DNA of 63,668 bases, the filler included. It is 8 parts of 8 records of this genome, joined end to end, with 100 filler letters (N's around TTAATTAATTAA, not from the genome) between each part and the next. Parts side by side here need not be neighbours in the genome. Positions count along the whole stretch, not along the records: positions 59,921 to 63,668 come from SRR20825010_3574; 7 more parts are not named here. One strand, 5' to 3'. Positions 1,394 to 63,668 of this stretch are shown piece after piece; position 1 is the first letter of the stretch, and each line of letters starts with the position of its first letter. The translations under genes were made by a program, and so were the position numbers. The notes beneath the pieces were generated by a model, which searched no databases, was not told the origin of the DNA, and was given only the letters and a program-made list of their open reading frames with translations.

Positions 1394-3214
1394 TTAGCTT
1401 TTACTTGCCACCCAATCCGATATCAATTCCTCCATAACATTGAGCGGAACAGCGCCGTTGGTTAATACCACCTCATGAAATTCGCGGATGTCAAATTTTT
1501 CTCCGAGTTTATTTTTTGCCATTTCTCTGAGTTCCAAAATTTTCATCATCCCTATTTTATATGCTGTGGCCTGTGATGCCATTATAATGTGTCGCTCAAC
1601 CATGCGCTCACATTCGCGGTAGCTACCGGATGTATTGGTTTGATAGTAAGCGATTCCCTCTTCTCGTGTCCATTTTTTCAGGTGGATCCCCGTGTCTACG
1701 ACCAAACGACAAGCTCTCCACAATTCCATTGCCAATCGTCCGTAGTTGGCATACGGGTTTGTATACATTCCGATTTCCATGGGAAGGTATTCGCTATATA
1801 GACCCCAGCCTTCTACGCTAGCCGTGTAGCTGCCGAACTTCCTGAATTTCGGAATGTCAGTCAGCTCCTGAGCGATGGTCCGATCCATGTGGTGGCCGGG
1901 GATTCCCTCGTGGTAAGCGAGAGGCTCCATTTCGTACTTGGGCATGTTCCGAGTGCTGCTCAAGTTGGCATAGTAGGTTCCAGGTCGAGAACCATCTGGA
2001 GCAGGACGTTGGTAAAAGGCTTTCCCTGCAGAGTTTTCTCGAAAAGCTTCTACTCTTTTTACCACAATATCCGCCTTGGGTTTGGTGATAAACAATTCAT
2101 CCAACCGGCCTCTCATGTTGTCAATAAGAATGGTTGCACTATCCAGATAAGCCTGTTTACCTTCTTCAGTGTTAGGAAAATAGAACTGATCGTCTTCTTT
2201 GAGGAAGGTGAAAAAATCCTGAAGGTTGCCTTCGAAACCTACCTGATTCATAATTGCTTGTATTTCGGAATGAATCCGGGCTACCTCGCTTAATCCGATT
2301 TCATGAATCTCTTCTGCAGTGAGATTGGTAGTTGTTGTTCGGGCCAAAGCATTGCTGTAAAAGTCATCTCCGTTGGGGAATTTCCAGACACCATCCTCAT
2401 CCGTAGCTCGCGTTTCCTGATCTTTCACTACCACCATAAGTTTTTCGTAAGCGGGTTTCATGCTAGTCAAAAGGGCTTTTTTGGCCTCTTCTATGAACCA
2501 CATTTTTGTTTCATCTGTAAGGTCGAGTTTTGCAATTTTATCCTGAAAATCTGCGAGTAGTGTGCCTGGTTCGCCTGATTCAAAGGGCTCACCTTTTAAA
2601 ATGTTCTCGCAATCGGCCAACACGCGTGGGAAGACAAATTTGGGGGCTAGAATGCCTTTTTCTTCTCGGATTCTCAGGTTTTCAATTCCCTGATCAAAAT
2701 ATGCCGAAATTCCATTTAACCGGGAGATATAGGCCGCAGCATCCGATGAATCGGTGATTTGGTGGATGTTGATTAAAAAGGCTGGAATGGATGATTGCAT
2801 TCCGCGCATTTGATTGATCGGATAATTGTGAAAACGCCATTTAAAGTCGGCGATTCGGTTTTCTGCCTTCTCCTTAAACAACTTATAGGAAATTTGGGTT
2901 TGCCTGTTAAGTTGTTCCGGGTTGATGGAATCTATCACATACTGCAATTCTGCTTTAGTGATTTCAAGTTCCATTTGAGCATTTTCATCCGAGATGTCGT
3001 CCCATTCGCCATAGTCCTTCTTGATCCCCTGATAGCTTTGGCTCATGGGAGACCGGTCGATCGACGCATCATAACTTTTATCAAAGAAGGCATTGGCTTT
3101 AGAGGAGGCCTCTTCGATTTCTTCTGAACTGAATTTTTTGCTCGTTTCGGTGCAGCCAAAGAGTCCAATGAAAAAGACGAGGGTAGCGGATATTCTTAGC
3201 GTATATGTATTCAT
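1394..3214 (-). CDS. DUF885 family lipoprotein (metallopeptidase-like)
   Basis: Lipobox LFGC; HEGIPGHH, EGWGLYSE, RACRLVVDTGIH, QATAYKIG motifs. Confidence 0.9.
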   Translation of the reverse strand: MNTYTLRISATLVFFIGLFGCTETSKKFSSEEIEEASSKANAFFDKSYDASIDRSPMSQSYQGIKKDYGEWDDISDENAQMELEITKAELQYVIDSINPEQLNRQTQISYKLFKEKAENRIADFKWRFHNYPINQMRGMQSSIPAFLINIHQITDSSDAAAYISRLNGISAYFDQGIENLRIREEKGILAPKFVFPRVLADCENILKGEPFESGEPGTLLADFQDKIAKLDLTDETKMWFIEEAKKALLTSMKPAYEKLMVVVKDQETRATDEDGVWKFPNGDDFYSNALARTTTTNLTAEEIHEIGLSEVARIHSEIQAIMNQVGFEGNLQDFFTFLKEDDQFYFPNTEEGKQAYLDSATILIDNMRGRLDELFITKPKADIVVKRVEAFRENSAGKAFYQRPAPDGSRPGTYYANLSSTRNMPKYEMEPLAYHEGIPGHHMDRTIAQELTDIPKFRKFGSYTASVEGWGLYSEYLPMEIGMYTNPYANYGRLAMELWRACRLVVDTGIHLKKWTREEGIAYYQTNTSGSYRECERMVERHIIMASQATAYKIGMMKILELREMAKNKLGEKFDIREFHEVVLTNGAVPLNVMEELISDWVASKS

Positions 3215-3314: not shown

Positions 3315-4637
3315 TTAAACTTCCCTTTCGTCAAACTCAAAGCCCATTTCATTGAGTTCATCAAGCACCGGATTGTAGATTTCGGGCACAGTAGGAATGT
3401 GTACGCCAGACAAGTTTACCTTTCCTTGAAGAATAAGTTTTGCCATAATTCCCAGTGGTAAACCTACTGTTTTGGACATGGCAGTGTGGGTTGGATCATC
3501 GCCAACAGCCACCATGCTCGATTGGATTTCTCGTCGCTTTCCTTTGTCTGTAAACACAAATTTGTGCCACATGATGATCATGTCTTTGTCCTCTGGCAAA
3601 AGCGTCCATTTTTTCTTGAGAATGTGTTCCAAAATCTGGGCAGGGCTTCCTTCTTTCAGACCGACGGGCGTTTCCTCAAAAACATCCAGGTTTTTAAGCT
3701 TATACATTTCGTCCGACTCCATACTTAGGTTCATGTAATGAGCCATTTTTAGTTCCACCGAATCGTCAGGATTGTAGGAAAGAAAGGAATTAAAAAACTG
3801 GCGGTGGGTCATGGATTCCACATTTTCCATCTTGTAACTATCGTCAGTGGCCCCAAGCTGCACAAATATGTTCCAGGCTTTACAAAATCCCGGTCTTCGT
3901 AAGGTGCCCCGATACAAGGTCTTTATTCCGCGGAGTTTATATACATCCAAATATTTCAGGGAGTCGCGATTGGCGTAACCTTCGAAATACCCATGCCCAG
4001 GGATATGGATAACCTCCGTTCTCCTAAACAACCGGTGATAAGGGATGTACTTAAAGCGACCTTCTTGCAGAAACTTTACATTGCCCTGGCCTGCCAAAAC
4101 CACATTTCGTGGATTCCAGGTGAATTTATATTCCCAGGGATTATCGGATTCCTTATTTTCCGCCAGCAATCCCCCGGTAAAGGTTTCAAACGAAGTGAGT
4201 TCATGCCCTTCTTCTTTGATCCGATCAAGCACCTTCATGGCCGACATGTGGTCAATCCCAGGATCCAATCCCAATTCCATTACGCAGAGTGCATTCTTCG
4301 ATTCAAAAACGGAATGTAAGGCTTTAATCTCATCGGGGAGATAGGAGGCCGTGAGCATGTTTTTCCCAAATTCAGCACAGATGTGAGCCACCTTCGGATG
4401 CAAAGAGGCGGGCAACATGCTGATGACCAAATCCGCCTCAGAAATTTTTCTTCTGGCGGCTTCAGTCTCTTCTATATCGAATGAAATAACATTTGCTTCA
4501 GGAAATTTTTTCCTTGCTGCTTCCACATCAATTTCCGCGATGGTCAAACCCCAGTTTTCATTTTGGCTATGAGAAATAAGGTAGTTGATTAAGGATGTGG
4601 CGGAGCGACCTGCTCCCAGAATCAGGATGTTTTTCAT
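3315..4637 (-). CDS. Saccharopine dehydrogenase family protein
   Basis: GAGRSA Rossmann motif, ELGLDPGIDHMSA, YKFTWNP, TAMSKTVGLP. Confidence 0.93.
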   Translation of the reverse strand: MKNILILGAGRSATSLINYLISHSQNENWGLTIAEIDVEAARKKFPEANVISFDIEETEAARRKISEADLVISMLPASLHPKVAHICAEFGKNMLTASYLPDEIKALHSVFESKNALCVMELGLDPGIDHMSAMKVLDRIKEEGHELTSFETFTGGLLAENKESDNPWEYKFTWNPRNVVLAGQGNVKFLQEGRFKYIPYHRLFRRTEVIHIPGHGYFEGYANRDSLKYLDVYKLRGIKTLYRGTLRRPGFCKAWNIFVQLGATDDSYKMENVESMTHRQFFNSFLSYNPDDSVELKMAHYMNLSMESDEMYKLKNLDVFEETPVGLKEGSPAQILEHILKKKWTLLPEDKDMIIMWHKFVFTDKGKRREIQSSMVAVGDDPTHTAMSKTVGLPLGIMAKLILQGKVNLSGVHIPTVPEIYNPVLDELNEMGFEFDEREV

Positions 4638-11869: not shown

Positions 11870-13834
11870 CTACTCAAACGGAATCAATCGCGGCTTATAC
11901 TTAAATATATTGTCAAAAGTAATGGGTGTGGAAACCGAAATGCTTATTACAAAATCGTTTGTTTGTTCTGTCGCTATCAGAAATTTGGTTGCTCTTATCT
12001 CAAAGGTGTTAAAAACCAAACTCTCGTTTTTCAGCCGAAGACCCATGCCAATGGAACTAAAATCATGTGTTTCGGCCACCACTCTGTTGTCGACCATGTT
12101 GCTCAAACTCCCATATGCAAACGGTGAAAACCGGAACCCATAAATGTACCATGGAGTATGTACTACAGTTTCCCATCGGATAAATCGTGCTTTCTCACCT
12201 TCAATATCGGGCCCGTTGATGTCCCTGATTCGTGTAGCCAGACTTAAATTTCGTGACGAGGGTTGTCGCACCCCGTTTACGTAACCCATGTTAACGTAAA
12301 ATCGGCTTTTATAGCGGCCAAGCGGGCCATAATTGAAAATAGGGGTGTAATAGGAGAGCGTGGAGCCATAGACACCTGTTTTTAACACGTCTTTAGCAAA
12401 GCCACCAACCTGCTGACTGATAAGGATATATCCGAATTTCTTGAAATACCTCGACCAATAGTATTGAAACCCCATGTAGTTTTGAGTGTAAAATTCATTG
12501 AAGTCTTTTCCGTAAAGTGCTGAGAAGCGATAGCCAACCGGAATATCCTCTGAAACCCCAAACCCATTGACGTAGTTCGATTTGATAAATTTTTGTTTGG
12601 TGTAGGATACCTGACCAAGTACGAACGTGCGGTCATAGTAAATCTCATTGCTGTCGCTGGCTATCGGAGGGCGATCATCGAAGTGGTTGTTTAGCACACG
12701 GCCGGAAAGAATGATGTTCCGCCTTTCGTTTTTTGAATGAAGAAGAAAGGCACGCCCAACCCAAATATCCTTTGTATTTAGTTTGTAAAATCGACCGTCT
12801 TCAACGTCCCCATCCAGTGTAATTGTGGAATCAGTGATCGTTCTGAATTCAACCCCACCACCGTATTTAACCTGTGGAGTAATGAATTCCTTTTGAACAT
12901 TCATTCCATAGTCTTTCTTGTCCCAATAATTCGAGTGGTTTAGTTCCCAACTTGTGATGGCCTTTAGTGAATTTTGACCACCAATTTTAAGCGCATATCC
13001 GTTTGTCGGGTCTGAATGGGTATTGTAAAAATAATTGATTGAACCGTACCTACCTAGACCTGCGATTGACCGGTTGAAAAGTTCAAAATTCAATTGTTTG
13101 ATGTCGTCATACCTGGTCTGGAACCCCCAGCTAAGTTGATCTTTGATGGCAATGATTAGATCAATGTATTCAGAGTTTTCAATTGGTTTGATATAAATTT
13201 TTGCATCTTCCACGTAAAGAAGACCCCTTAGAATCCGCTCAGTATCTGCAAGTGTGAACGGGTTCACTTCCTGTCCCGATTTGATTGGAAGGTTGCTTTT
13301 TAGAACCCAACTGCGTGTGTCAAAATGATATTTATTGGCAAAAATGGAGAGGCCGGATGAAGATGATCGAGAGGTGTCCTGCACACTTCCTTCAAGTATG
13401 TCCACGTGCATAAATCGAATTGAACGAATGATCTTACCAGTGTACTGTCTAAAGGCCATATCACTGGAGAATCCTGACTTTGCAATTTCAGCGGACTGCT
13501 TATCAGGATTGGTGAGAAACAGGTTCGAAATTTTCCTTGTTACTTTATTTCCCCCGGTTCGTTCTTTTAAACTGTTGTAGAAGAGGTCGGAACTGGTGTA
13601 CGGGTTTTTCTGAATCTTGTATCTCGTGTCAGCATCCAAATAGAGTGTAGTGTCGGATTCAGGAGCGATAATCTCATCTTTGAGGATAAGAATCTGGTTC
13701 CTTCGTACCCGGATGGAGTCCCGGATGGAATCCCGGATGGAATCCCCAATCGGCTCAATGCTAAGGTTTGGTTCAGCAATAGCGTGACTGATCAGGCAGA
13801 GTAAAACCGGGGTGATCAGCAAAAACCGTTTCAA
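11870..13834 (-). CDS. BamA/TamA-like (POTRA + beta-barrel) outer-membrane protein
   Basis: Signal peptide; POTRA-like 'LPIKSGQEVNPFTLADTERILRGL.YVEDAKI'; amphipathic beta strands; GLRLKNESLVF near C-terminus. Confidence 0.7.
   Translation of the reverse strand: MKRFLLITPVLLCLISHAIAEPNLSIEPIGDSIRDSIRDSIRVRRNQILILKDEIIAPESDTTLYLDADTRYKIQKNPYTSSDLFYNSLKERTGGNKVTRKISNLFLTNPDKQSAEIAKSGFSSDMAFRQYTGKIIRSIRFMHVDILEGSVQDTSRSSSSGLSIFANKYHFDTRSWVLKSNLPIKSGQEVNPFTLADTERILRGLLYVEDAKIYIKPIENSEYIDLIIAIKDQLSWGFQTRYDDIKQLNFELFNRSIAGLGRYGSINYFYNTHSDPTNGYALKIGGQNSLKAITSWELNHSNYWDKKDYGMNVQKEFITPQVKYGGGVEFRTITDSTITLDGDVEDGRFYKLNTKDIWVGRAFLLHSKNERRNIILSGRVLNNHFDDRPPIASDSNEIYYDRTFVLGQVSYTKQKFIKSNYVNGFGVSEDIPVGYRFSALYGKDFNEFYTQNYMGFQYYWSRYFKKFGYILISQQVGGFAKDVLKTGVYGSTLSYYTPIFNYGPLGRYKSRFYVNMGYVNGVRQPSSRNLSLATRIRDINGPDIEGEKARFIRWETVVHTPWYIYGFRFSPFAYGSLSNMVDNRVVAETHDFSSIGMGLRLKNESLVFNTFEIRATKFLIATEQTNDFVISISVSTPITFDNIFKYKPRLIPFE
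13709..13744. repeat. 12-bp tandem repeat x3 encoding (DSIR)3
   Basis: CCGGATGGAGTC CCGGATGGAATC CCGGATGGAATC. Confidence 0.9.
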
Positions 13835-15845: not shown

Positions 15846-16037
15846 TCAGAACACCCAGACTTCGGGGGCGAAGTTTGCTGACTCTGCGATGGTCCCCGAT
15901 CGCGCTTGCCACGTTCTGAATCGGACTGGCCTGATGCCCCTAAAGGCCGTCTTGCGGACTGGGCTGGCACGTCTGCGGCTGATGCGACTGATCTCGGTCA
16001 AGGCGGCTCTGGGATTGATGCCCATGATGGTCCGCAT
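15846..16037 (-). CDS. Small basic hypothetical protein (63 aa)
   Basis: GAGGG RBS before ATG 16037; fills an intergenic gap; Arg-rich. Confidence 0.45.
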   Translation of the reverse strand: MRTIMGINPRAALTEISRISRRRASPVRKTAFRGIRPVRFRTWQARSGTIAESANFAPEVWVF

Positions 16038-16254
16038 GAACTCACCCTCTTCACGCGCAGATTCACCCATAACACTCCGTCGATCCGGAGATAGACAGCC
16101 CTGTCCCCGGCCTTCGCGGACGTCCTTGGCATCTCAACGATGCTGACTCTGGTCGTCACACCCGCCATGTTGTCTCTGAGTGAGACAGAGGCGCGGCCGG
16201 CGCAGCCACCCCAGGCCATTGCCGCGCCACAGGCAACTTGAGGCGGTCCAGCAG

Positions 16255-16965
16255 ATGCAGACACCCCTTGCGTTTACCACACGCGGCCTGACCAAGGTCT
16301 ATGGCGAAGGGCGCTCTGCCGTCCACGCCCTGCGCGGTGTCGATCTGGAAATCCCGCAGGGTGAGATCGTCGTACTACTGGGCCCCTCCGGCTCCGGCAA
16401 ATCAACCCTGCTGAACATCATCGGCGGACTGGACCGCGCGACCGACGGCACAGCCCATTTCCGCGATCAATCCCTGTCAGAGATGAGCGACGCGGAACTG
16501 ACGCGCTACCGGCGCGACCACGTCGGTTTTGTGTTTCAGTTCTACAACCTGATGCCCAGCCTGACGGCGCAGGAGAACGTCGAACTGGTGACCGAAATCG
16601 CGGCCAACCCGATGGACCCGGACGCCGCCTTGGCGCTGGTTGGCCTGAAGGAACGCACCGACCACTTTCCGGCGCAACTGTCGGGCGGCGAACAACAGCG
16701 TGTCGCCATAGCGCGCGCCATCGCCAAACAGCCAGAGGTGCTGTTCTGCGATGAACCGACCGGCGCTCTGGACAGCACCACAGGCCGCGCCGTGCTCGAG
16801 GTGTTGCGGGACGTGAATGCGCGGCTCGGCTCGACCGTGCTGATGGTGACGCACAACGCCAACACCGCTGCCATGGCCGACCGGGTGATCCATTTCGCCG
16901 ATGGCGGCATCCGCGAGGTTGTCCGCAACCCCACCAAGCTCAGCCCTTCGGAGATCGAGTGGTGA
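16255..16965 (+). CDS. ABC transporter ATP-binding protein (MacB/LolD-like)
   Basis: [27 protein letters not shown]; start moved to ATG 16255 after GAGG. Confidence 0.94.
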
Positions 16966-19325
16966 GCCCGCTGGACCACAAGCTGCTGCGCGATCTCTGG
17001 CGCATCAAAGGTCAGGCCATCGCCATCGGGGCGGTGATTGCCGTCGGCGTCATGATGCTGGTCATGATGACTGGCCTGACCTCCTCGCTGACCCAGACCC
17101 GAGACGCGTATTATGAACGCTACCGGCTGGCCGATGTCTTTGCGCCGGTCAGCCGCGCGCCGGAACGCCTTGGCAGCAGGCTGGCAGCGATCCCCGGCGT
17201 GGCCTCTGTGCAGACCCGCGTACAGGGCCGCGCGCTGATCGACCTGTCGGGGCAGGTTCTGCCGGTGCAGGCGCAGGCAATGTCCCTGCCAGACCGCGGG
17301 CGACCGGCGTTGAACGATGTCTATCTGACCGACGGGCGGATGCCGGCGGCGGGGCGTCCCGATGAAATCCTGTTGTTGCAGAGCTTTGCCGCCGCCCATG
17401 ACCTGCGCCCCGGCGACAGCCTGCGCGCCACGATGAACGGCGCGCGGCGCAGCTTTGACATTGTCGGCCTCGCCCAAAGCCCCGAGTTTTTGTACATCAC
17501 CGCCCCGGGAGAGTTGATCCCCGATGACGCCCGGTTCGGCGTGATCTGGATGAGCCGCGCAGGCCTGTCCGCCGCCTACGACATGTCGGGTGCCTTCAAT
17601 GAGGCGCTGATCGGGCTGTCGCGCGGGGCCAGCGAACCGGCGGTCATGGCGGCCATCGACCGCGTGCTGACCGCCTACGGCGGGACCGGCGCCTATCCAC
17701 TGGCAGATCAGACCTCAAACCGCTTTGTCTCGGAAGAGATCGCCGGGTTGGAGGCCGCCGCCACCGGCGTGCCGCCGATCTTTCTGATGGTCGCGGCCTT
17801 TCTGCTGTATATCGTGATCAGCCGCATCGTGCAGGCCGAACGCGGCCAGATCGGCCTGATGAAGGCGTTTGGCTATACCAACACAGAGGTCGGGGCCCAT
17901 TACTTCAAGCTGGTGATAGCCATTGCGGTGGGCGGCGCGCTGGCCGGGTGTCTGGCGGGCATCGGCACAGGGCGCGCAATGGTCGGGTTATACACCACCT
18001 ACTACAAGTTTCCCTTTCTGGTTTTCCAACTGGACCCGGCCTCGTTTGTGATCGGCGTCGCGGTCAGTATCCTGTCGGCCTCAGTCGGCGGGCTGCTGGT
18101 GTTGCGGCAGGTTTTTGCCCTGACACCCGCCGATGCGATGCGCACACCGACGCCGCCCGATTTCAGCCGCACGGGCCGGATGGGTCGGGCCATCGGCAGT
18201 GTTCTGGATCAACCCTCGCGCATGGTCATGCGCCGCATCACCCGGCAACCTGTCAGGATGGCGGGGGCGATGATCGGCATCGCCAGCGGCATGGCGCTGT
18301 CGGTGTCCATGATCACGATCTATGCGGGCTTCGATCAGACCATCGATCTGACCTTTTCCGTGGTCGACCGCAGCGATGTGACCGTCAGCTTTACCCACCC
18401 GGTCAGCGACAAGACCCTGTTCGAACTGGCCCGCCTGCCCGGCGTTCAGCGGGTGGAACCTGTCCGCAACGTGGCCGTCGTGTTGCGCAACGGCGTGAAC
18501 AGCTATCGCGGCGCGCTGACCGGATTGCCGGAGAATCCGACACTGAACCGCGCACTGGATGACCGGATGCAGCCCATCGCCCTGCCCCAAGGCGGCGTTG
18601 TCCTGTCCCGCGTGCTGGCGGACATGCTGGACATCCAGCCCGGTGATACGCTGGGCGTCGATGTCCGCGAAGGCCGCCAACCGCTGTTGGACCTGCCCGT
18701 CTCCGGCATTGCGGAATCGCTGCTGGGCGCCCCGGCCTACATGGGGCTGGATGCACTCAACGCCGCCCTGCGGGAGCCGGGGCGCGTGTCGGGGGCCTAT
18801 CTGATGATCGACGAGGCACAGGGGGACCCAATTTTTGCCGCCTTGCAGGACATGCCCACCGTTGCGGGCGTCAGCCTGAAATCGCAGGCACGCGATGCCT
18901 TTGTGACCTTGATGAACACCGGCGCGGGGGCGATCCGCTATGTGATGGGGGCGCTTGCCTTTGTCATCACCTTTGGCATTGTCTACAACGCCGCCCGCAT
19001 CGCACTGGCCGAACGCGCCCGCGATCTGGCCAGCTTGCGAGTGATCGGTTTTAGCAAAGGGGAAACCGCTTTTGTGCTGCTCGGTGAGCTTGCGGTTGTG
19101 ACCCTCGTCGCGCTGCCAGTGGGCGCGCTCATGGGCTACTACATGTCCTTCGGCATCGCCGCAGGCTTTTCGACCGACCTCTATCAAATCCCCGCCAACT
19201 TTGATCCTGTCAGCTATGGGCAGGCAACGCTGGTCGTGCTGACCGCTGCAGTGGTATCCGGCTGGCTGGTGAAACGCGATCTGGACCGCACCGACCTGAT
19301 CCAAGCCCTCAAGACCCGGGAGTAA
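16962..19325 (+). CDS. ABC transporter permease (duplicated MacB/FtsX)
   Basis: Two FtsX-like repeats ([25 protein letters not shown]); GTGA overlap. Confidence 0.92.
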
Positions 19326-59920: not shown

Positions 59921-59952
59921 AAACCGCTATTTTTTATATACGTTGTTACCTG
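59921..59952. repeat. End of attC-like repeat element; GTTACCTG core at 59945-59952
   Basis: GTTACCTG is the exact reverse complement of CAGGTAAC at 63627-63634 at the other end of the R-M unit. Confidence 0.5.
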
Positions 59953-60068
59953 GCTGGCGTTTTTCCACAAACTTGCTAGCGTTGGCAAAGACATACTCTT
60001 TTACAGTTTTGGTGTAGCTTGGATGGCGCGACTGTAAATGTGTATGGCTTTCAGCGTTGGCAATTCCG

Positions 60069-61250
60069 CTATGTGATTAAATTATAACTTTCACTAGGTG
60101 GAAACAGTAATTCAATTCCTTTTGGTTTTATTTTAAAAAGCGGACCTTTTTCGACCACTTTTCCTTTCGAGTTTCTTTTAATTAAATGGTCAAGCGTTAT
60201 TATTCCTTGTTCAATTAGTAAGTCAAATTGTGACGTAATTGGCTTTTTAGTATGCTCAACCAATTTATATTGAAAATGTTCTCGGTCATTTATTCTAGTA
60301 CTTTCCGCTTCTACCCAAAAAGTTTCTTTATGTTTCAGTTTTAGTCGGTTGTGTAGTTTGTCTAATGTCCAAACCACAAAATCGCCAACCTCTGGCTTGT
60401 CAGAGTTTTCAATCAGTTGTTTTATGTCGGTATCAATTCTTAAGTTCAAGCCTTGCGAGTTTCTCGTTATTGCTGATACTGTGCAATACAACTTGAAATC
60501 TTCTTCTCGTTCGTAACCAAAATTGTCAAGAATTTCTGCTGAACTTTTAAACTTACTTAATTTCCAATCTGGGACTTGTGCAAATAGATTTTTACGGTTT
60601 GTTCTACTATTTCTGAATGATTTAAGTTCAATTCCTTTATAGTCTGGCTGTTTTGATGAATTAATGTCAATTCCGAGTGCAGTTTCAAGTGTTCTCCCAA
60701 CAGAAGTATCTGCATCAACCATTGAAGGAATTGGGCCAGCGTTTGCAATTTTTCTTAACATAGCCAAAAGCTCAAAAGCAACTTCATTTTCAGTCGTATT
60801 AATTGCATTTATTAATTCTTGAAAAGGATTTAGAATTGAAGAATTAATCAATTCTTTGATGTCTAATTTTGTCAAGTTGAAAACTTGAAATTGATTATCA
60901 AAATATGTAAATGCAATAATATCATTTGGGTCTGCAATTTTTGTTAAGCTATAAAACCAAATTCGTGGGTCTCCTTTTTTAGTAGAAGGTCTGTATAAAG
61001 ATGCTTGTGATTTTATGGTTTTAAAACCTGTATGAATGATTGCAGGAATCATCACTTTACTTTCAGTACCTTGTTTTTGTAATTCGTAATCGTGAATGTT
61101 TTCACTTTTCAAAAAACTTCGAACAGAACCAGTTGCATCCATAATGGATTTTTTTAGTCCGGTTTCGGTTGGCTCAATTAAAGTAAGAGAAACTTGGTTT
61201 TTGGTCAGTAATTTTATTTTTTCTTGTTCTGCGTCTGTAAGTTTTCTCAC
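60069..61250 (-). CDS. MvaI/BcnI-family restriction endonuclease
   Basis: VGRTLETALGI..NSSKQPDYKGIELKS PD-(D/E)xK motif, LFAQVPDW, KHKETFWV, GPLFKI. Confidence 0.88.
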   Translation of the reverse strand: MRKLTDAEQEKIKLLTKNQVSLTLIEPTETGLKKSIMDATGSVRSFLKSENIHDYELQKQGTESKVMIPAIIHTGFKTIKSQASLYRPSTKKGDPRIWFYSLTKIADPNDIIAFTYFDNQFQVFNLTKLDIKELINSSILNPFQELINAINTTENEVAFELLAMLRKIANAGPIPSMVDADTSVGRTLETALGIDINSSKQPDYKGIELKSFRNSRTNRKNLFAQVPDWKLSKFKSSAEILDNFGYEREEDFKLYCTVSAITRNSQGLNLRIDTDIKQLIENSDKPEVGDFVVWTLDKLHNRLKLKHKETFWVEAESTRINDREHFQYKLVEHTKKPITSQFDLLIEQGIITLDHLIKRNSKGKVVEKGPLFKIKPKGIELLFPPSESYNLIT

Positions 61251-63454
61251 TTGATATGTTTTAAAATTTCACTTGCTACTGCTCTTGCTAATAAAGGCGG
61301 AACAGCATTGCCAACTAAAGTGTATTGTGGCACTTCTGTTTTTCTATTATTTCCGCCTGTTGAGCGTTTACCTTGAAACACAAAAGAATCATCAAAGGAT
61401 TGTAAACGTGCCATTTCTCTAACTGTTAATGACCTTGGCGAATTGTAATGAATATAATCGTCAGCAATGGTCATTATCGTAGAACTTTGCTCGTCTGGTT
61501 TTAAAACATTGTAATTTCTCTTATTTGTAGACAGATTTAATTTCTCAAGTTCTGGCCGTGCTTTTTTATAATCTCCATTTTTTAAAATCACTCCAAGTCT
61601 TTCAACAACAGTTTCGTTTTGCTTACTTGTTTTGTGATTGTTGAGTATGTCAAAGTATTTTTCTCCGTTTTCTAAACCTTCAGTATTTCTTACGTAAAAT
61701 GGTTTTGTTTGTGGTTTGAAACGTTCAATCAATCTACCTTTCTTTGACCATTCAGCAAATGATTTTCCACCTTTTGAAATTGGTTTTCCATCAATTCTGC
61801 GCTTCTTCAAAAGTTTAGCCATTTTTTTAGCTGTTCCATTGTATTGAGCATAAATATCAACTTCTTCATATCGATGAGCTTCTTGGTCATTGCCGATAAA
61901 GTCTAAATCGTGTAAAGCTTCAAAAATTGTAACTTTTTCTTCTTCGGAAACTGTTGCAGGAATTTCAGAAATATATTTTTGGTCTTTGCGACAACCAATA
62001 AAAAGTACTCTTTCTCTATTCTGCGGAACACCGTAATTTGATGCATTAGCAACAAAAGGTTGTTCTATTTTATAAAGTCTAATACTTTCAAGAATTGTTT
62101 CTAATTCCTGTTTTTGTGTTTTATTACAATGAGTTTTTAATATCTCAATTGACTCGTCAAAAGAAGTGGTGTAAATTTTTAATGCAGTAATAATATCTTC
62201 ACAATCTTTTTTATAGTTGGCTGGAACTTTTAAATTTTTAAATGAATTCTCAATTTTTGAAATAATATTTTCAGAGCCAATTTCTGTAAGGAAGTCAGTA
62301 AAAGCAGTTGTGAAATTATCACTATCGATATTACAAAAGTCTTTCTCTTTAATAATGTCACGCTTTAATTTATCCCATTCTTTGGTTCGTGCTAAAAGAT
62401 TAAAACCGTGGCGGATTGTGTTAATGTTTTCGTCTGTTTTACTGGTTTTGTAGTCTGCAATTTTTGGTGTTATCTTTTTAAATCTGTTTTCCACAAAGTT
62501 GATGAAATCGGCTTTTCCATTTTCTTTGTCTTTTTCCAGAAGCTTTTCGATTTCAACTCTTTTTATTATTGTATCGAAAAGAAATGAATTTGATTCTTTA
62601 CTGACTTTTTTTATGAATGAAATTAATTGAGGAATTTCTTTAGTGTCAACAATAGAGTTGATTTCTTGAAGAATTAACTCTTTTATTTTACCACCTTCTT
62701 TAGTCAAAATGCCTTTTACATTTTCCATCACAAAGTATTTAGGTTGTAAAGCCTTAATGACTTCTAAATAATGAGAAAATAGGTCATCTTTTTTGTCGAA
62801 TTTTTTTCGCTTTCCTGCAAGACTAAAACTTTGACAAGGTGGTCCACCACAAACAACATCTATTTTTCTACCATTGATTTTTTCTAATAAGTTGTCTAGA
62901 AAATCTGGTTCAGTAATATCTTGTTTTAAAAATTCAGCATTTAAACCTAATTGGTGATTGTAGCGAACAAGGTGAGTTAACTCACAGTTTTCGTTAATAT
63001 CGTTAGCCACAATAAAATCGAAGAATTTATTGTTATGTTCAGCTTGTAAAAATCCTTCGCTAAAACCACCTGCTCCAGCAAATAAATCAACAAAAGTGAA
63101 CGGTTTTCCGTAAAGTGAAACTTGTTCTTTTACAATATTTACATTACTGTTTTCTTTGTAGTTTTCTATGTGTTCATTTAAAAGGCTTTTAACTTCGTCT
63201 TGGTTAAAAGTCTTTTTGTTGGAATGGTGTAGAAGTTCGTCAGCTCTTTCTCTTAAGAAATCCAAATAATGGTTTATTTCGTGCGATTCTGTAGTCAAAC
63301 CAATCGCTTTTTGTTTGGATTTATCAAATTTTTTAGCTTCTATTTTTTGACCTGTCGAAACCTTAACCTGACTCCCATTACAGTTTATTCGTAGATGAAT
63401 TGGTGCAAACCCTTTTTTGTCAGGTTTGTCTAAATAAAAATTAATTGTTGCCAT
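61247..63454 (-). CDS. DNA cytosine-5 methyltransferase with N-terminal integrase arm-DNA-binding-like domain and large internal insertion
   Basis: DLFAGAGG (I), GGPPCQSFS (IV), MENVKG (VI), YGVPQNRER (VIII), REMARLQSF (IX), GNAVPP (X); N-terminal ~90 aa resemble Arm-DNA-bind_5; GTGA overlap with REase. Confidence 0.92.
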   Translation of the reverse strand: MATINFYLDKPDKKGFAPIHLRINCNGSQVKVSTGQKIEAKKFDKSKQKAIGLTTESHEINHYLDFLRERADELLHHSNKKTFNQDEVKSLLNEHIENYKENSNVNIVKEQVSLYGKPFTFVDLFAGAGGFSEGFLQAEHNNKFFDFIVANDINENCELTHLVRYNHQLGLNAEFLKQDITEPDFLDNLLEKINGRKIDVVCGGPPCQSFSLAGKRKKFDKKDDLFSHYLEVIKALQPKYFVMENVKGILTKEGGKIKELILQEINSIVDTKEIPQLISFIKKVSKESNSFLFDTIIKRVEIEKLLEKDKENGKADFINFVENRFKKITPKIADYKTSKTDENINTIRHGFNLLARTKEWDKLKRDIIKEKDFCNIDSDNFTTAFTDFLTEIGSENIISKIENSFKNLKVPANYKKDCEDIITALKIYTTSFDESIEILKTHCNKTQKQELETILESIRLYKIEQPFVANASNYGVPQNRERVLFIGCRKDQKYISEIPATVSEEEKVTIFEALHDLDFIGNDQEAHRYEEVDIYAQYNGTAKKMAKLLKKRRIDGKPISKGGKSFAEWSKKGRLIERFKPQTKPFYVRNTEGLENGEKYFDILNNHKTSKQNETVVERLGVILKNGDYKKARPELEKLNLSTNKRNYNVLKPDEQSSTIMTIADDYIHYNSPRSLTVREMARLQSFDDSFVFQGKRSTGGNNRKTEVPQYTLVGNAVPPLLARAVASEILKHIK

Positions 63455-63462
63455 AATTATTC

Positions 63463-63498
63463 ACGGACGTTTTTACGTACACGGACAAATTTACGGAC
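63463..63498 (-). promoter_or_regulatory. Promoter -7 box embedded in ACGGAC direct repeats
   Basis: ACGGAC at 63463, 63481, 63493 and ACGTAC at 63475; minus-strand TAAATTTG at 63486-63493. Confidence 0.7.
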
Positions 63499-63642
63499 AT
63501 TTTTATTAATTCCTAATTTAATTCTGTTTTTTGTTCAGATTATGCGTTGGAAAAAGGCAAGCTCTTTTTATTTTGTGAGGCACGAGCAAAATAAAATGTG
63601 CTTGACTGTGCGGTGGGATTCGCTTGCAGGTAACGTTGTTGT

Positions 63643-63668
63643 GTCGAGTAGACAAGGGGAGTTTCACC
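63643..63668 (-). mobile_element. 3' end (domain VI) of a group II intron, truncated by contig end
   Basis: Minus strand GGTGAAACTCCCCTTGTCTACTCGAC matches the bacterial group II intron terminus (GAAA loop, bulged A, terminal AC); only 26 nt visible. Confidence 0.65.

Follow-up and report, generated by a model that had tools for sequence, protein, structure and literature searches.

What is an integrase-type DNA-binding domain doing at the head of a cytosine methyltransferase? The question arises from a window of 63,668 nucleotides (the whole stretch of DNA that was analysed), a chain of contigs with N spacers in which the R-M piece occupies positions 59921-63668 (3748 bp). The G+C content of this piece is 32% as compared to 48% for the remaining window and, since the contigs are joined by N spacers, the window carries no information on its linkage to other genes. 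One open frame at 61247..63454, on the minus strand, encodes a protein of 735 aa in which an Arm-DNA-bind_5 domain, a helical linker and a C5 methyltransferase follow one another; a restriction endonuclease gene comes next. The coding parts are the following:

63215..63454, minus strand: Arm-type DNA-binding domain, aa 1-80 (PF17293 match at 63233-63430, aa 9-74)
63119..63214, minus strand: linker, aa 81-112, with a second long helix predicted at aa 85-112 (model of aa 1-115)
61247..63118, minus strand: C5 cytosine methyltransferase part, aa 113-735 plus stop (PF00145, E 2e-53, in two stretches)
60069..61250, minus strand: restriction endonuclease gene, 393 aa, with an MvaI/BcnI-family domain at aa 162-383 (PF15515, E 4e-80)

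The initial annotation had described the N-terminus as an integrase arm-type domain fused to the methyltransferase in one continuous frame. Both points were borne out: the 735-aa frame starts with the residues quoted there, 63180-63454 corresponding to aa 1-91, and PF17293 (Arm-DNA-bind_5) was matched above its curated cut-off of 22.6 bits both when the whole protein was searched against Pfam (32.2 bits, aa 9-74) and when aa 1-100 were searched alone (38.6 bits, E 1.5e-9). With aa 1-100 and E up to 1, Pfam gave no regulator-type helix-turn-helix family, and one weak z-alpha row (E 0.038) was below cut-off. The AlphaFold2 model of aa 1-80 (mean pLDDT 93.1) shows beta strands at aa 3-8, 16-25 and 28-39, followed by a helix at aa 55-77. 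The modelled Arm part of the methylase thereby has the same topology, three-stranded with one helix, as was predicted for the arm domain of the CTnDOT integrase when PF17293 was defined (10.1101/542381). Fold searches with the models of aa 1-115 and aa 1-80 returned rows at noise level (best row Z 4.9); both AP2 (6sy0; Z 4.4, rmsd 3.6, 57 residues, rank 9) and the arm domain of the HPI integrase (3jtz; Z 3.7, rmsd 2.9, 55 residues, rank 32) lie within noise. No Foldseek match was obtained with the Arm models at E ≤ 0.001, and the profile of the N-terminus found no meaningful match among solved structures (top row occludin, E 0.024). When the model of aa 1-115 was used, the helical hairpin dominated the fold search.

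In phmmer searches, alignments to integrases of 401-424 aa reached query residues 97-105. The homology ends at about residue 105, which is where the SAM-like core-binding domain of these integrases starts; the capture of an integrase 5' end, as proposed in the initial annotation, is therefore a fair description. The event was ancient and not recent, as the nearest integrases found are 38-44% identical over the matched part. The fusion protein itself is not an integrase, as it gave no match to PF13102 or PF00589 and has PF00145 instead. Tyrosine integrases of the Int_CTnDOT type (Arm-DNA-bind_5, Phage_int_SAM_5 and Phage_integrase) share with it the approximately 105 homologous N-terminal residues and the same predicted secondary structure of the Arm domain, whereas the fusion carries a methyltransferase in place of the core-binding and catalytic recombinase domains. 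Moreover, its presumed target is an array on a promoter, whereas the arm sites of Int_CTnDOT flank the att core.

The PF00145 match begins at aa 119 (182 bits vs. a cut-off of 22), with an extension of 118 aa ahead of the C5 methyltransferase domain, and TIGR00675 was matched with 157 bits (cut-off 100.65). The catalytic motifs are readable in the translation, and we take them to be AdoMet motif I, PCQ motif IV, ENV, QNRER and GNAVPP of the C5 methyltransferases. An insertion of about 200 aa follows the ENV motif (aa 271-480, 62015-62644), and the nearest solved chains align with aa 118-268 only. The methylase stop overlaps the GTG start of the endonuclease gene by 4 nt, as GTGA, on the same strand. 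In the endonuclease, the PF15515 model is covered from position 1 to 227 of 227 (269.5 bits vs. a cut-off of 25), and the comparison with R.MvaI (2oa9) gave E 1.6e-7; the 160-aa N-terminal extension had no Pfam match at E up to 0.01. Cleavage by enzymes of the MvaI/BcnI family takes place at sites of the CC(W/S)GG type, which resemble the CCNGG site of SsoII. No separate controller gene is present within the 3.8-kb unit, nor was an Rfam family or a tRNA found near the fusion gene.

Homologous fusions, which the initial annotation had recommended looking for, proved widespread and intact. We used 80 of 105 stretches in species-representative genomes that encode a relative, with L001 in genome G001 as the reference locus, whose protein is identical to that of the window and whose flanks differ. 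The whole gene is held by 79 of the 80 loci, the remaining one being truncated at residue 59 where its contig stops, and these 79 full-length loci from other genomes all have open frames of 720-738 aa with the same ATG. Both PF00145 and PF17293 are present in all of the best 120 homologue protein clusters; these span at least 15 named genera, with identities of 88-100% for the system. The loci come from Flavobacteriaceae, Cytophagales, Saprospiraceae and Bacteroidales. Of the words sampled from 61247-63668, a fraction of 0.99-1.00 was present in four more public runs from two studies, one of these runs maybe being the source sample. The dN/dS, calculated on pairs limited to an overall dS of 0.2-2, a range that left 1293 of the 1437 Arm-part pairs, was 0.067 for the Arm part (aa 1-75) and 0.066 for aa 76-117, as compared to 0.020 for the methyltransferase N-lobe and 0.058 for the C-terminal methyltransferase part. 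A value of about 0.07 indicates, at the level of codon substitutions, that the Arm domain is under purifying selection and is kept for a function, which argues against the decay considered in the initial annotation. The fusion occurs in 24 genomes of a family sample of 401. In a phylum sample, also of 401 genomes, the methylase core was found in 4 (E ≤ 1e-50), always in frames of 737-754 aa that are long enough for Arm head and linker, and no relative without the Arm head was found at this threshold. A second, distant clade consists of three fusions with an Arm part 29-35% identical, for which PF17293 gave 22.6 bits in L096 and no match at E ≤ 0.001 in L094 and L095; two of the three have a different partner, a convergent 314-aa ORF.

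The promoter region of the fusion gene contains these features:

63463..63498, minus strand: putative operator of four direct GTCCGT-type hexamers, ending 8 nt before the ATG
63498-63493, 63486-63481 and 63468-63463, minus strand: exact GTCCGT (hexamers 1, 2 and 4)
63480-63475, minus strand: degenerate hexamer GTACGT (hexamer 3)
63486..63493, minus strand: predicted sigma-A -7 box TAAATTTG, filling the gap from hexamer 1 to hexamer 2 and reaching into both

The hexamers start 12, 6 and 12 nt apart, and the array, which is contained in the fragment 63455-63510, lies 9-44 nt upstream of the methylase ATG. All three GTCCGT of the 3.7-kb piece fall within 36 nt on one strand. Among the 79 loci, where the background frequency is 0.16 hexamers per kb, 77 retain the pair motif GTCCGT-N6-GTCCGT and 70 retain all four hexamers in this layout; in loci with 67-72% protein identity, similarity to L001 begins only at the array. 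The pair motif has a single match in the 4.5-Mb genome G001, at the promoter of the fusion gene. In the family sample, the exact motif was found up to about 45 nt upstream of the frame in 23 of the 24 fusion genomes, and the 24th has it with one changed base; in the fusion-free genomes, no TAnnTT spacer occurred among the matches listed.

The -7 consensus of Bacteroidota is TAnnTTTG, at -12 to -5 in flavobacteria (PMC9723704). The box reads TAnnTTTG in 75 of the 79 loci, with variation only at both n positions, and TAAATTCG in 2 further loci. Transcription is predicted to start near 63481. For a relative with about 90% identity, RNA-library contigs stop at 63472 and 63475, without loose ends and 6-9 nt short of the predicted start; being assembled contigs from two libraries of one study, and of a kind of library that can hold DNA, they are a weak hint to the transcript start. 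They span the Arm part and the methyltransferase N-lobe. RNA runs X4 and X10 contained short pieces only. A scan for E. coli-type promoters was discarded, as it gave no more sites than shuffles and the method is unsuited to this phylum.

An integrase-type head and matching repeats on its own promoter lead to the reading that the methylase probably switches its own operon off: the Arm head would bind the promoter array and repress the M-R operon, as in M.SsoII and M.Ecl18kI, with another fold and another operator. In a new host without methylase, the sigma-A promoter would be free and one M-R transcript would be made, from which the methylase would be translated first and the endonuclease by coupling at the GTGA overlap. 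As the methylase accumulates, its Arm head would occupy the direct GTCCGT hexamers, which are located at about -17 to -12, -5 to +1, +2 to +7 and +14 to +19 (counted from the box); so bound, it would exclude RNA polymerase, and both genes would settle at a low steady level. Considering that hexamers 2 and 3 abut (6-nt spacing), four domains may not bind simultaneously. Repression of a single shared promoter would not in itself make the endonuclease lag behind the methylase.

M.EcoRII, M.MspI and M.ScrFIA are further C5 enzymes whose N-terminal region binds DNA in a regulatory role. M.SsoII, M.Ecl18kI and the fusion are alike in being C5 methyltransferases of type II R-M systems with an extra N-terminal region before motif I, and in having an operator, putative in the fusion, at the methylase promoter upstream of the coding sequence. 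In M.SsoII and M.Ecl18kI, the N-terminal region binds an operator on its own promoter, distinct from the methylation site, and excludes RNA polymerase (PMC2760811; PMC3978073). The SsoII system has a helix-turn-helix in residues 1-71, a 15-bp inverted repeat and divergent R and M genes, whereas the fusion has a head of integrase origin made of a three-stranded sheet and a helix, an operator of four direct hexamers arranged about a -7 box of the Bacteroidota type, and co-directional, overlapping M and R genes. The Arm-methylase would work like the SsoII-type family and is not a member of it. The C proteins, which are separate small helix-turn-helix proteins with C-boxes as their targets and, usually, an activating effect on the endonuclease gene, resemble the proposed Arm head in that they control R-M expression in a new cell through DNA binding. 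In C proteins such as C.PvuII and C.Kpn2I, a dedicated DNA-binding function times and limits R-M expression after entry (PMC2175313; PMC6237814).

Co-occurrence alone cannot show which protein reads the hexamers. It is conceivable, with a clearly smaller probability, that the array is read by another factor or is itself a promoter or leader element, and that the Arm head has another DNA-directed role; it might tether the enzyme, generally or at specific sites, and so alter the place or rate of methylation, or might inhibit it allosterically when bound to a site. The hexamer array is kept also in the distant clade, near-invariant while the Arm domain falls to 29-35% identity. This would fit a host factor or a constraint on promoter or 5' UTR; it also fits conserved contact residues, and 12 Arm positions are invariant in 19 fusions. 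A second, non-transcriptional effect has a precedent, since regulatory-site DNA inhibits methylation by M.SsoII (PMC6100179). Against another reader, all 24 sampled genomes that have the fusion have the array as well, with no promoter-type spacer elsewhere among the matches listed. Judging from the comparison of loci, the array follows the Arm-methylase and not the endonuclease, because the distant fusions keep it, two of them with another partner ORF. A host factor common to Flavobacteriaceae, Cytophagales, Saprospiraceae and Bacteroidales, with one target per genome, is unlikely.

The unit that carries this operon is a 3.8-kb integron-like gene cassette, with the following ends in the window:

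63629..63634, minus strand: 5' boundary of the mobile unit, reading GTTACC along the gene strand (29-locus alignment plus window)
59921..60068, minus strand: 3' non-coding end, part of an attC-like imperfect inverted repeat, inside which the contig breaks

When 29 loci were aligned with the window, similarity set in sharply at GTTACCTGCAAGC, and the extents of blastn matches agree; upstream of this junction the sequence differs among genomes, window and L001 diverging about 10 nt upstream. The 3' end matches L001 13387-13541, and the full site of L001 ends at a junction motif at 13616-13632. A single-strand fold pairs both ends of the attC-like site (z -1.74), whose identity as attC was judged by eye and from this one fold. 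In L001 an integron-integrase-like gene is followed by a one-strand array of similar units to which the R-M unit belongs, and which also contains a group II intron and cassettes of the HEPN and toxin-antitoxin-like kinds; the junction motif occurs there in 9 copies on one strand, and in the 80 loci in 100 forward vs. 28 reverse copies. Like integron cassettes, some of which bring a promoter of their own, the R-M unit is bordered by GTT junctions on either side and has an imperfect inverted repeat (attC-like) in its 3' part. Unlike in known integrons, the L001 recombinase (2030-3136) is below the integron-integrase cut-offs (185.5 bits vs. 265 for TIGR02249; 187 vs. 220 for the XerA/integron-integrase model) and points the same way as the cassettes; its relatives (32-41% identity) are found in 7 of the other 79 loci. 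A circular cassette junction is predicted to pair CAGGTAAC with GTTACCTG. The cassette context is the reason why the system is so similar across genera and assembles as contigs of about 3.5-4 kb.

Given that the R-M unit is a mobile cassette and the Arm domain is of integrase origin, one might suppose that the Arm head ties the methylase to site-specific recombination, either at the arm sites of integrases and mobile elements or in excision and integration of the cassette. G001 does contain 21 integrase-sized frames with an Arm domain, and three of these are no more than 20 kb away from the fusion gene. We consider this role improbable: the pair motif is found nowhere else in G001, no GTCCGT cluster but only single scattered hexamers occur within about 3 kb of five of the closest integrase genes (42% Arm identity), the array sits on the promoter, some 130 nt in from the cassette junction and not at it, and the recombinase beside the L001 array is without an Arm domain. 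The initial annotation had offered R-M control or a tie to att arm sites as the function of the captured domain; the conserved array on the gene's own promoter gives the former strong support by comparison of loci, while the latter found no support. A view of the N-terminus as relic or artefact, produced by chimeric assembly or left from a captured part that is decaying while translation begins near motif I, was refuted: the window is a contig chain and its R-M piece is short with a deviating G+C, but the same intact frame in 79 of 79 independent loci, the dN/dS of the Arm part, the two domains in all 120 best protein clusters, the long frames of all four methylase cores of the phylum sample, the RNA-library contigs that cross the join between Arm part and methyltransferase, and the PF17293 match rule out a unique or decaying, a chimeric and a profile-less fusion alike.

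Self-repression through the Arm head would add a new kind of controller. The full-text literature search found no description of a fusion between Arm-DNA-bind_5 and a C5 methylase or of its regulation, in agreement with the initial annotation, whose author knew of none. All self-regulating methylases that we know of have helix-turn-helix heads and come from Proteobacteria and Firmicutes. The wider proposal, on which we are evenly divided, is that Arm domains are a third kind of built-in R-M controller, next to C proteins and the helix-turn-helix heads of SsoII-type methylases, with four direct hexamers clamping the -7 box, which makes the 3.8-kb unit a self-sufficient and self-limiting cassette that has spread by way of integron-like arrays in many genera of marine Flavobacteriaceae and whose controlling module has been reused with other partners. 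If this is true, the same circuit was invented independently from a part of an integrase, in a phylum whose promoters follow other rules. Arm-DNA-bind_5, whose arm-site rules are, as far as we know, otherwise little known, gains a predicted and simple DNA target, and the pair of putative repressor and operator is a compact one for genetic tools in Flavobacteriia. We are aware of hardly any report of complete integrons in Flavobacteriaceae or their phylum; integron-like arrays are here indicated as carriers of defence genes in this family.

The R-M contig (59921-63668, 3748 bp) is separate from the other contigs of the window and has a G+C content of 32%, as compared to 48% in the remaining window. 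The seven joints of the window all lie within 14460-59920, each consisting of a 12-base linker with stops in all frames between two runs of 44 N (the linker was seen at the last joint), and the neighbourhood of genes across them is not real. If the assembly represents a binned genome, the R-M contig may come from another organism than the contigs with 48% G+C. It carries two genes, both on the minus strand, in which the methylase stop and the endonuclease GTG start overlap as GTGA:

61247-63454, minus strand: Arm-methylase ORF, 735 aa
62015-62644, minus strand: insertion of about 200 aa in the methylase (aa 271-480), dividing the PF00145 match into two
60069-61250, minus strand: endonuclease ORF, 393 aa, GTG start
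60771-61250, minus strand: N-terminal extension of the endonuclease (aa 1-160), without Pfam match

Residues 162-383 of the endonuclease match the MvaI/BcnI family over the whole model (Pfam, E 4e-80), and the ORF also matches solved R.MvaI (2oa9, E 1.6e-7). R.MvaI is only 249 aa long, whereas the protein described here has 160 additional residues ahead of the MvaI/BcnI domain, for which no Pfam family was found. In the methylase, Arm-DNA-bind_5 (PF17293) occupies aa 9-74, with scores of 32.2 bits when the full protein is scanned and 38.6 bits for aa 1-100 by themselves (cut-off 22.6), and the C5 DNA methylase family follows from aa 119 in two stretches (E 2e-53), in agreement with NCBIfam (TIGR00675). 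The insertion between these stretches gave no family match in the Pfam scan. The initial annotation had described a fusion in one frame, quoting its N-terminal residues, and had expected an Arm-DNA-bind_5 profile match; the ORF starts with those residues and the profile was found above its cut-off.

When aa 1-110 were compared by phmmer with 1.8 billion representatives, 151 matches were obtained at E ≤ 0.001. The top ones represent this fusion, whole or in fragments, followed by proteins of 400-428 aa, two of which (P0142 and P0150) were scanned and contain Arm-DNA-bind_5, Phage_int_SAM_5 and Phage_integrase. The head is 38-44% identical to the integrases. Since several alignments extend to query residues 97-105, where the integrase core-binding domain starts, the captured piece corresponds to an integrase N-terminus up to a domain boundary, which bears out the capture of an integrase 5' end proposed initially. 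Judging from these alignments, the capture is an old one. AlphaFold2 predicts strands at aa 3-8, 16-25 and 28-39, a helix at aa 55-77 and a second helix at aa 85-112 (pLDDT 93.1 for the aa 1-80 model and 82.8 for the aa 1-115 model), the topology of the CTnDOT arm domain cited when PF17293 was defined (10.1101/542381). Fold searches with these models gave no independent support for an arm-domain fold, a solved arm-domain structure (3jtz, Z 3.7) and an AP2 domain (6sy0, Z 4.4) both appearing amid noise-level matches.

The fusion is a conserved family and no accident. The best 120 clusters of the homologue search are 733-736 aa long and 88-100% identical, all 120 contain both domains and, where source names are given, they come from many flavobacterial genera. 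In species-representative genomes, 105 relatives were found, and 80 loci were retained (identity from 100% to 67%), belonging to Flavobacteriaceae and to records labelled Cytophagales, Saprospiraceae, Bacteroidales, Fluviicola and Marivirga, plus one MAG labelled Roseobacteraceae. After exclusion of one gene truncated by a contig end, the frame is unbroken in all 79 remaining loci, is 720-738 aa long and starts at the same ATG. Nei-Gojobori dN/dS (1437 pairs with overall dS of 0.2-2, fewer being usable per part) was 0.067 for aa 1-75 and 0.066 for the linker; in the MTase it was 0.020 in the N-lobe, 0.070 in the inserted region, which is thus also conserved, and 0.058 in the C-terminal part. 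The head is therefore under constraint as strong as that on large parts of the enzyme. These values and the intact frames contradict the case of a unique and decaying fusion. Across the phylum, 401 sampled genomes included four with this methylase core (E ≤ 1e-50), each in a frame of 737-754 aa, and no relative this close without the head was seen. At least seven of the 79 loci (L017, L038, L042, L044, L046, L057 and L058) carry an insertion of 0.5-2.7 kb that separates the methylase gene from the endonuclease gene, for example:

L017, 4104-6313: intergenic insert with two extra co-directional ORFs
L044, 12211-13925: intergenic insert with two extra co-directional ORFs

One of the two ORFs resembles GmrSD_N (DUF262), with E 1e-19 in L044 and weakly in L017. 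Such loci are thus expanded operons under the same promoter module.

Directly 5' of the methylase ATG, the gene strand reads GTCCGTAAATTTGTCCGTGTACGTAAAAACGTCCGT (window 63498-63463; 9957-9992 in L001, the locus of genome G001 that encodes an identical protein). The three exact GTCCGT hexamers of the whole 3.7-kb R-M contig all fall within this array. GTCCGT-N6-GTCCGT, the first pair, occurs in 77 of 79 loci, and the layout of four hexamers (GTCCGY and RTMYGY variants included) in 70 of 79, over a background of 0.16 hexamers per kb outside the array. In loci at 67-72% protein identity, similarity to L001 starts only at the array, and the third hexamer is mostly exact GTCCGT. Together with their neighbours, the six bases that separate hexamer 1 from hexamer 2 form TAnnTTTG in 75 of 79 loci (TAAATTCG in two more), with variation of the box confined to its two free positions. 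TAnnTTTG is the flavobacterial sigma-A -7 box, located at -12 to -5 (PMC9723704), from which the hexamers fall at about -17 to -12, -5 to +1, +2 to +7 and +14 to +19 and the transcription start is predicted near 63481. RNA-library contigs from a relative about 90% identical (two libraries of one study) cover 62430-63472 and 62432-63475, ending there without loose ends, and none lies on 63546-63668; these ends are only a weak hint on the start, because contigs hide true ends and RNA libraries can contain DNA.

The array goes with the Arm-methylase. Among 401 genomes sampled from the family, 24 encode an Arm head as part of a frame of 736-775 aa. Of these, 23 have an exact copy of the pair motif no more than about 45 nt ahead of the frame, and in the 24th one base of it is altered. 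Chance matches occur in 40 non-fusion genomes, near the count of a reversed control pattern; among the matches listed, a promoter-type spacer was not seen. Three of the 24 fusions form a second clade, whose head is 29-35% identical to that of the window while the array is the same. In two of the three, a convergent ORF, possibly a novel endonuclease, replaces the MvaI/BcnI gene; no Pfam family was found for it:

L095, 2825-3769: convergent 314-aa partner ORF
L096, 2809-3753: convergent 314-aa partner ORF

The best reading of these patterns is that the Arm-methylase is an autorepressor, whose head would bind the hexamers and block the promoter, limiting the M-R transcript after methylase build-up. 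Of the R-M controller role suggested initially, the conserved array on the gene's own promoter was found, while binding and repression are what we infer. Another DNA reader acting on the array would also fit, and the constancy of the array while the head diverges is the main doubt on autorepression by the Arm head. A link to recombination sites, the other role suggested, found no support: G001 has 21 integrase-sized frames with Arm-DNA-bind_5 and the pair motif exactly once in 4.5 Mb, about 3 kb searched near five of the closest integrase genes in other genomes gave single scattered hexamers only, and the array is located some 130 nt inward from the junction of the R-M unit.

M.SsoII and M.Ecl18kI use an N-terminal helix-turn-helix to recognise a 15-bp inverted repeat at the promoter of the methylase gene and keep RNA polymerase off it (PMC2760811; PMC3978073). 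The proposed action of the Arm head on its own promoter would be analogous, but the system described here lacks their defining HTH, inverted repeat and divergent genes and is no member of that group; it is most likely a self-repressing methylase of new build. The SsoII/Ecl18kI operator AGGACAATTTGTCCT (PMC2760811) has nine bases, AATTTGTCC, in common with the array (window 63481-63493, minus strand), despite unrelated DNA-binding heads; the overlap is probably a coincidence. As the initial annotation had supposed, no description of a PF17293-type domain joined with a methyltransferase was found in full-text literature searches; the papers found to name PF17293 concern integrases or microbiome tables.

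Similarity among loci has an abrupt onset at GTTACCTGCAAGC, some 180 nt ahead of the ATG, and stops 140-250 nt past the endonuclease gene. In L001 a junction motif, CATAYACAA followed by three bases and CGTT, occurs nine times on one strand and divides the region into units, given here together with the neighbouring features:

L001, 23-799: fragment of a TnpB-like ORF (RNA-guided endonuclease family), upstream of the recombinase gene
L001, upstream of the cassettes: recombinase, 368 aa, XerA/integron-integrase models best, below cut-offs
L001, 7565-8018, 8019-8472, 9372-9824 and also 3732-4186: four units of about 454 bp, 92-95% identical, each with the junction motif at its borders, without long ORF
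L001, further units: ArsR/MerT; Gp49-HTH pair; 183-aa ORF; HEPN gene
L001, 9825-13632: R-M unit, bounded by the junction motif
L001, 15502-17321: group II intron (Rfam D1-D4 and domain V-VI matches), with an RT-maturase ORF at 15976-17226
Window, 59921-63634: R-M unit, the sole part of the array present

L001 2030-17321 thus has the appearance of an integron-like array, with about ten units on one strand after an integron-integrase-like gene and with toxin-antitoxin-like, HEPN, ArsR/MerT and R-M cassettes. Occurring several times within one array, the units of about 454 bp resemble cassettes that are empty or RNA-only. The intron lies shortly after the last junction motif (15264), an arrangement resembling that of attC-targeting group IIC introns. 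On joining of its two ends, the R-M unit would have CAGGTAAC paired with GTTACCTG, and its 3' end folds into an imperfect hairpin (z -1.74). No Arm domain was found in the 368-aa recombinase, relatives of which occur in 7 of the 79 other loci. Over 80 loci, the junction motif was counted 100 times in forward and 28 times in reverse orientation. An integron-like cassette nature would account for the many contigs of about 3.5-4 kb among the best 120 clusters and for the wide spread at high identity. Because the IntegronFinder 2.0 report names Salinibacter ruber as the sole member of the Bacteroidetes with a complete integron (PMC9024848), the arrays merit a study of their own, complete integrons being, by that account, scarcely reported in this phylum.
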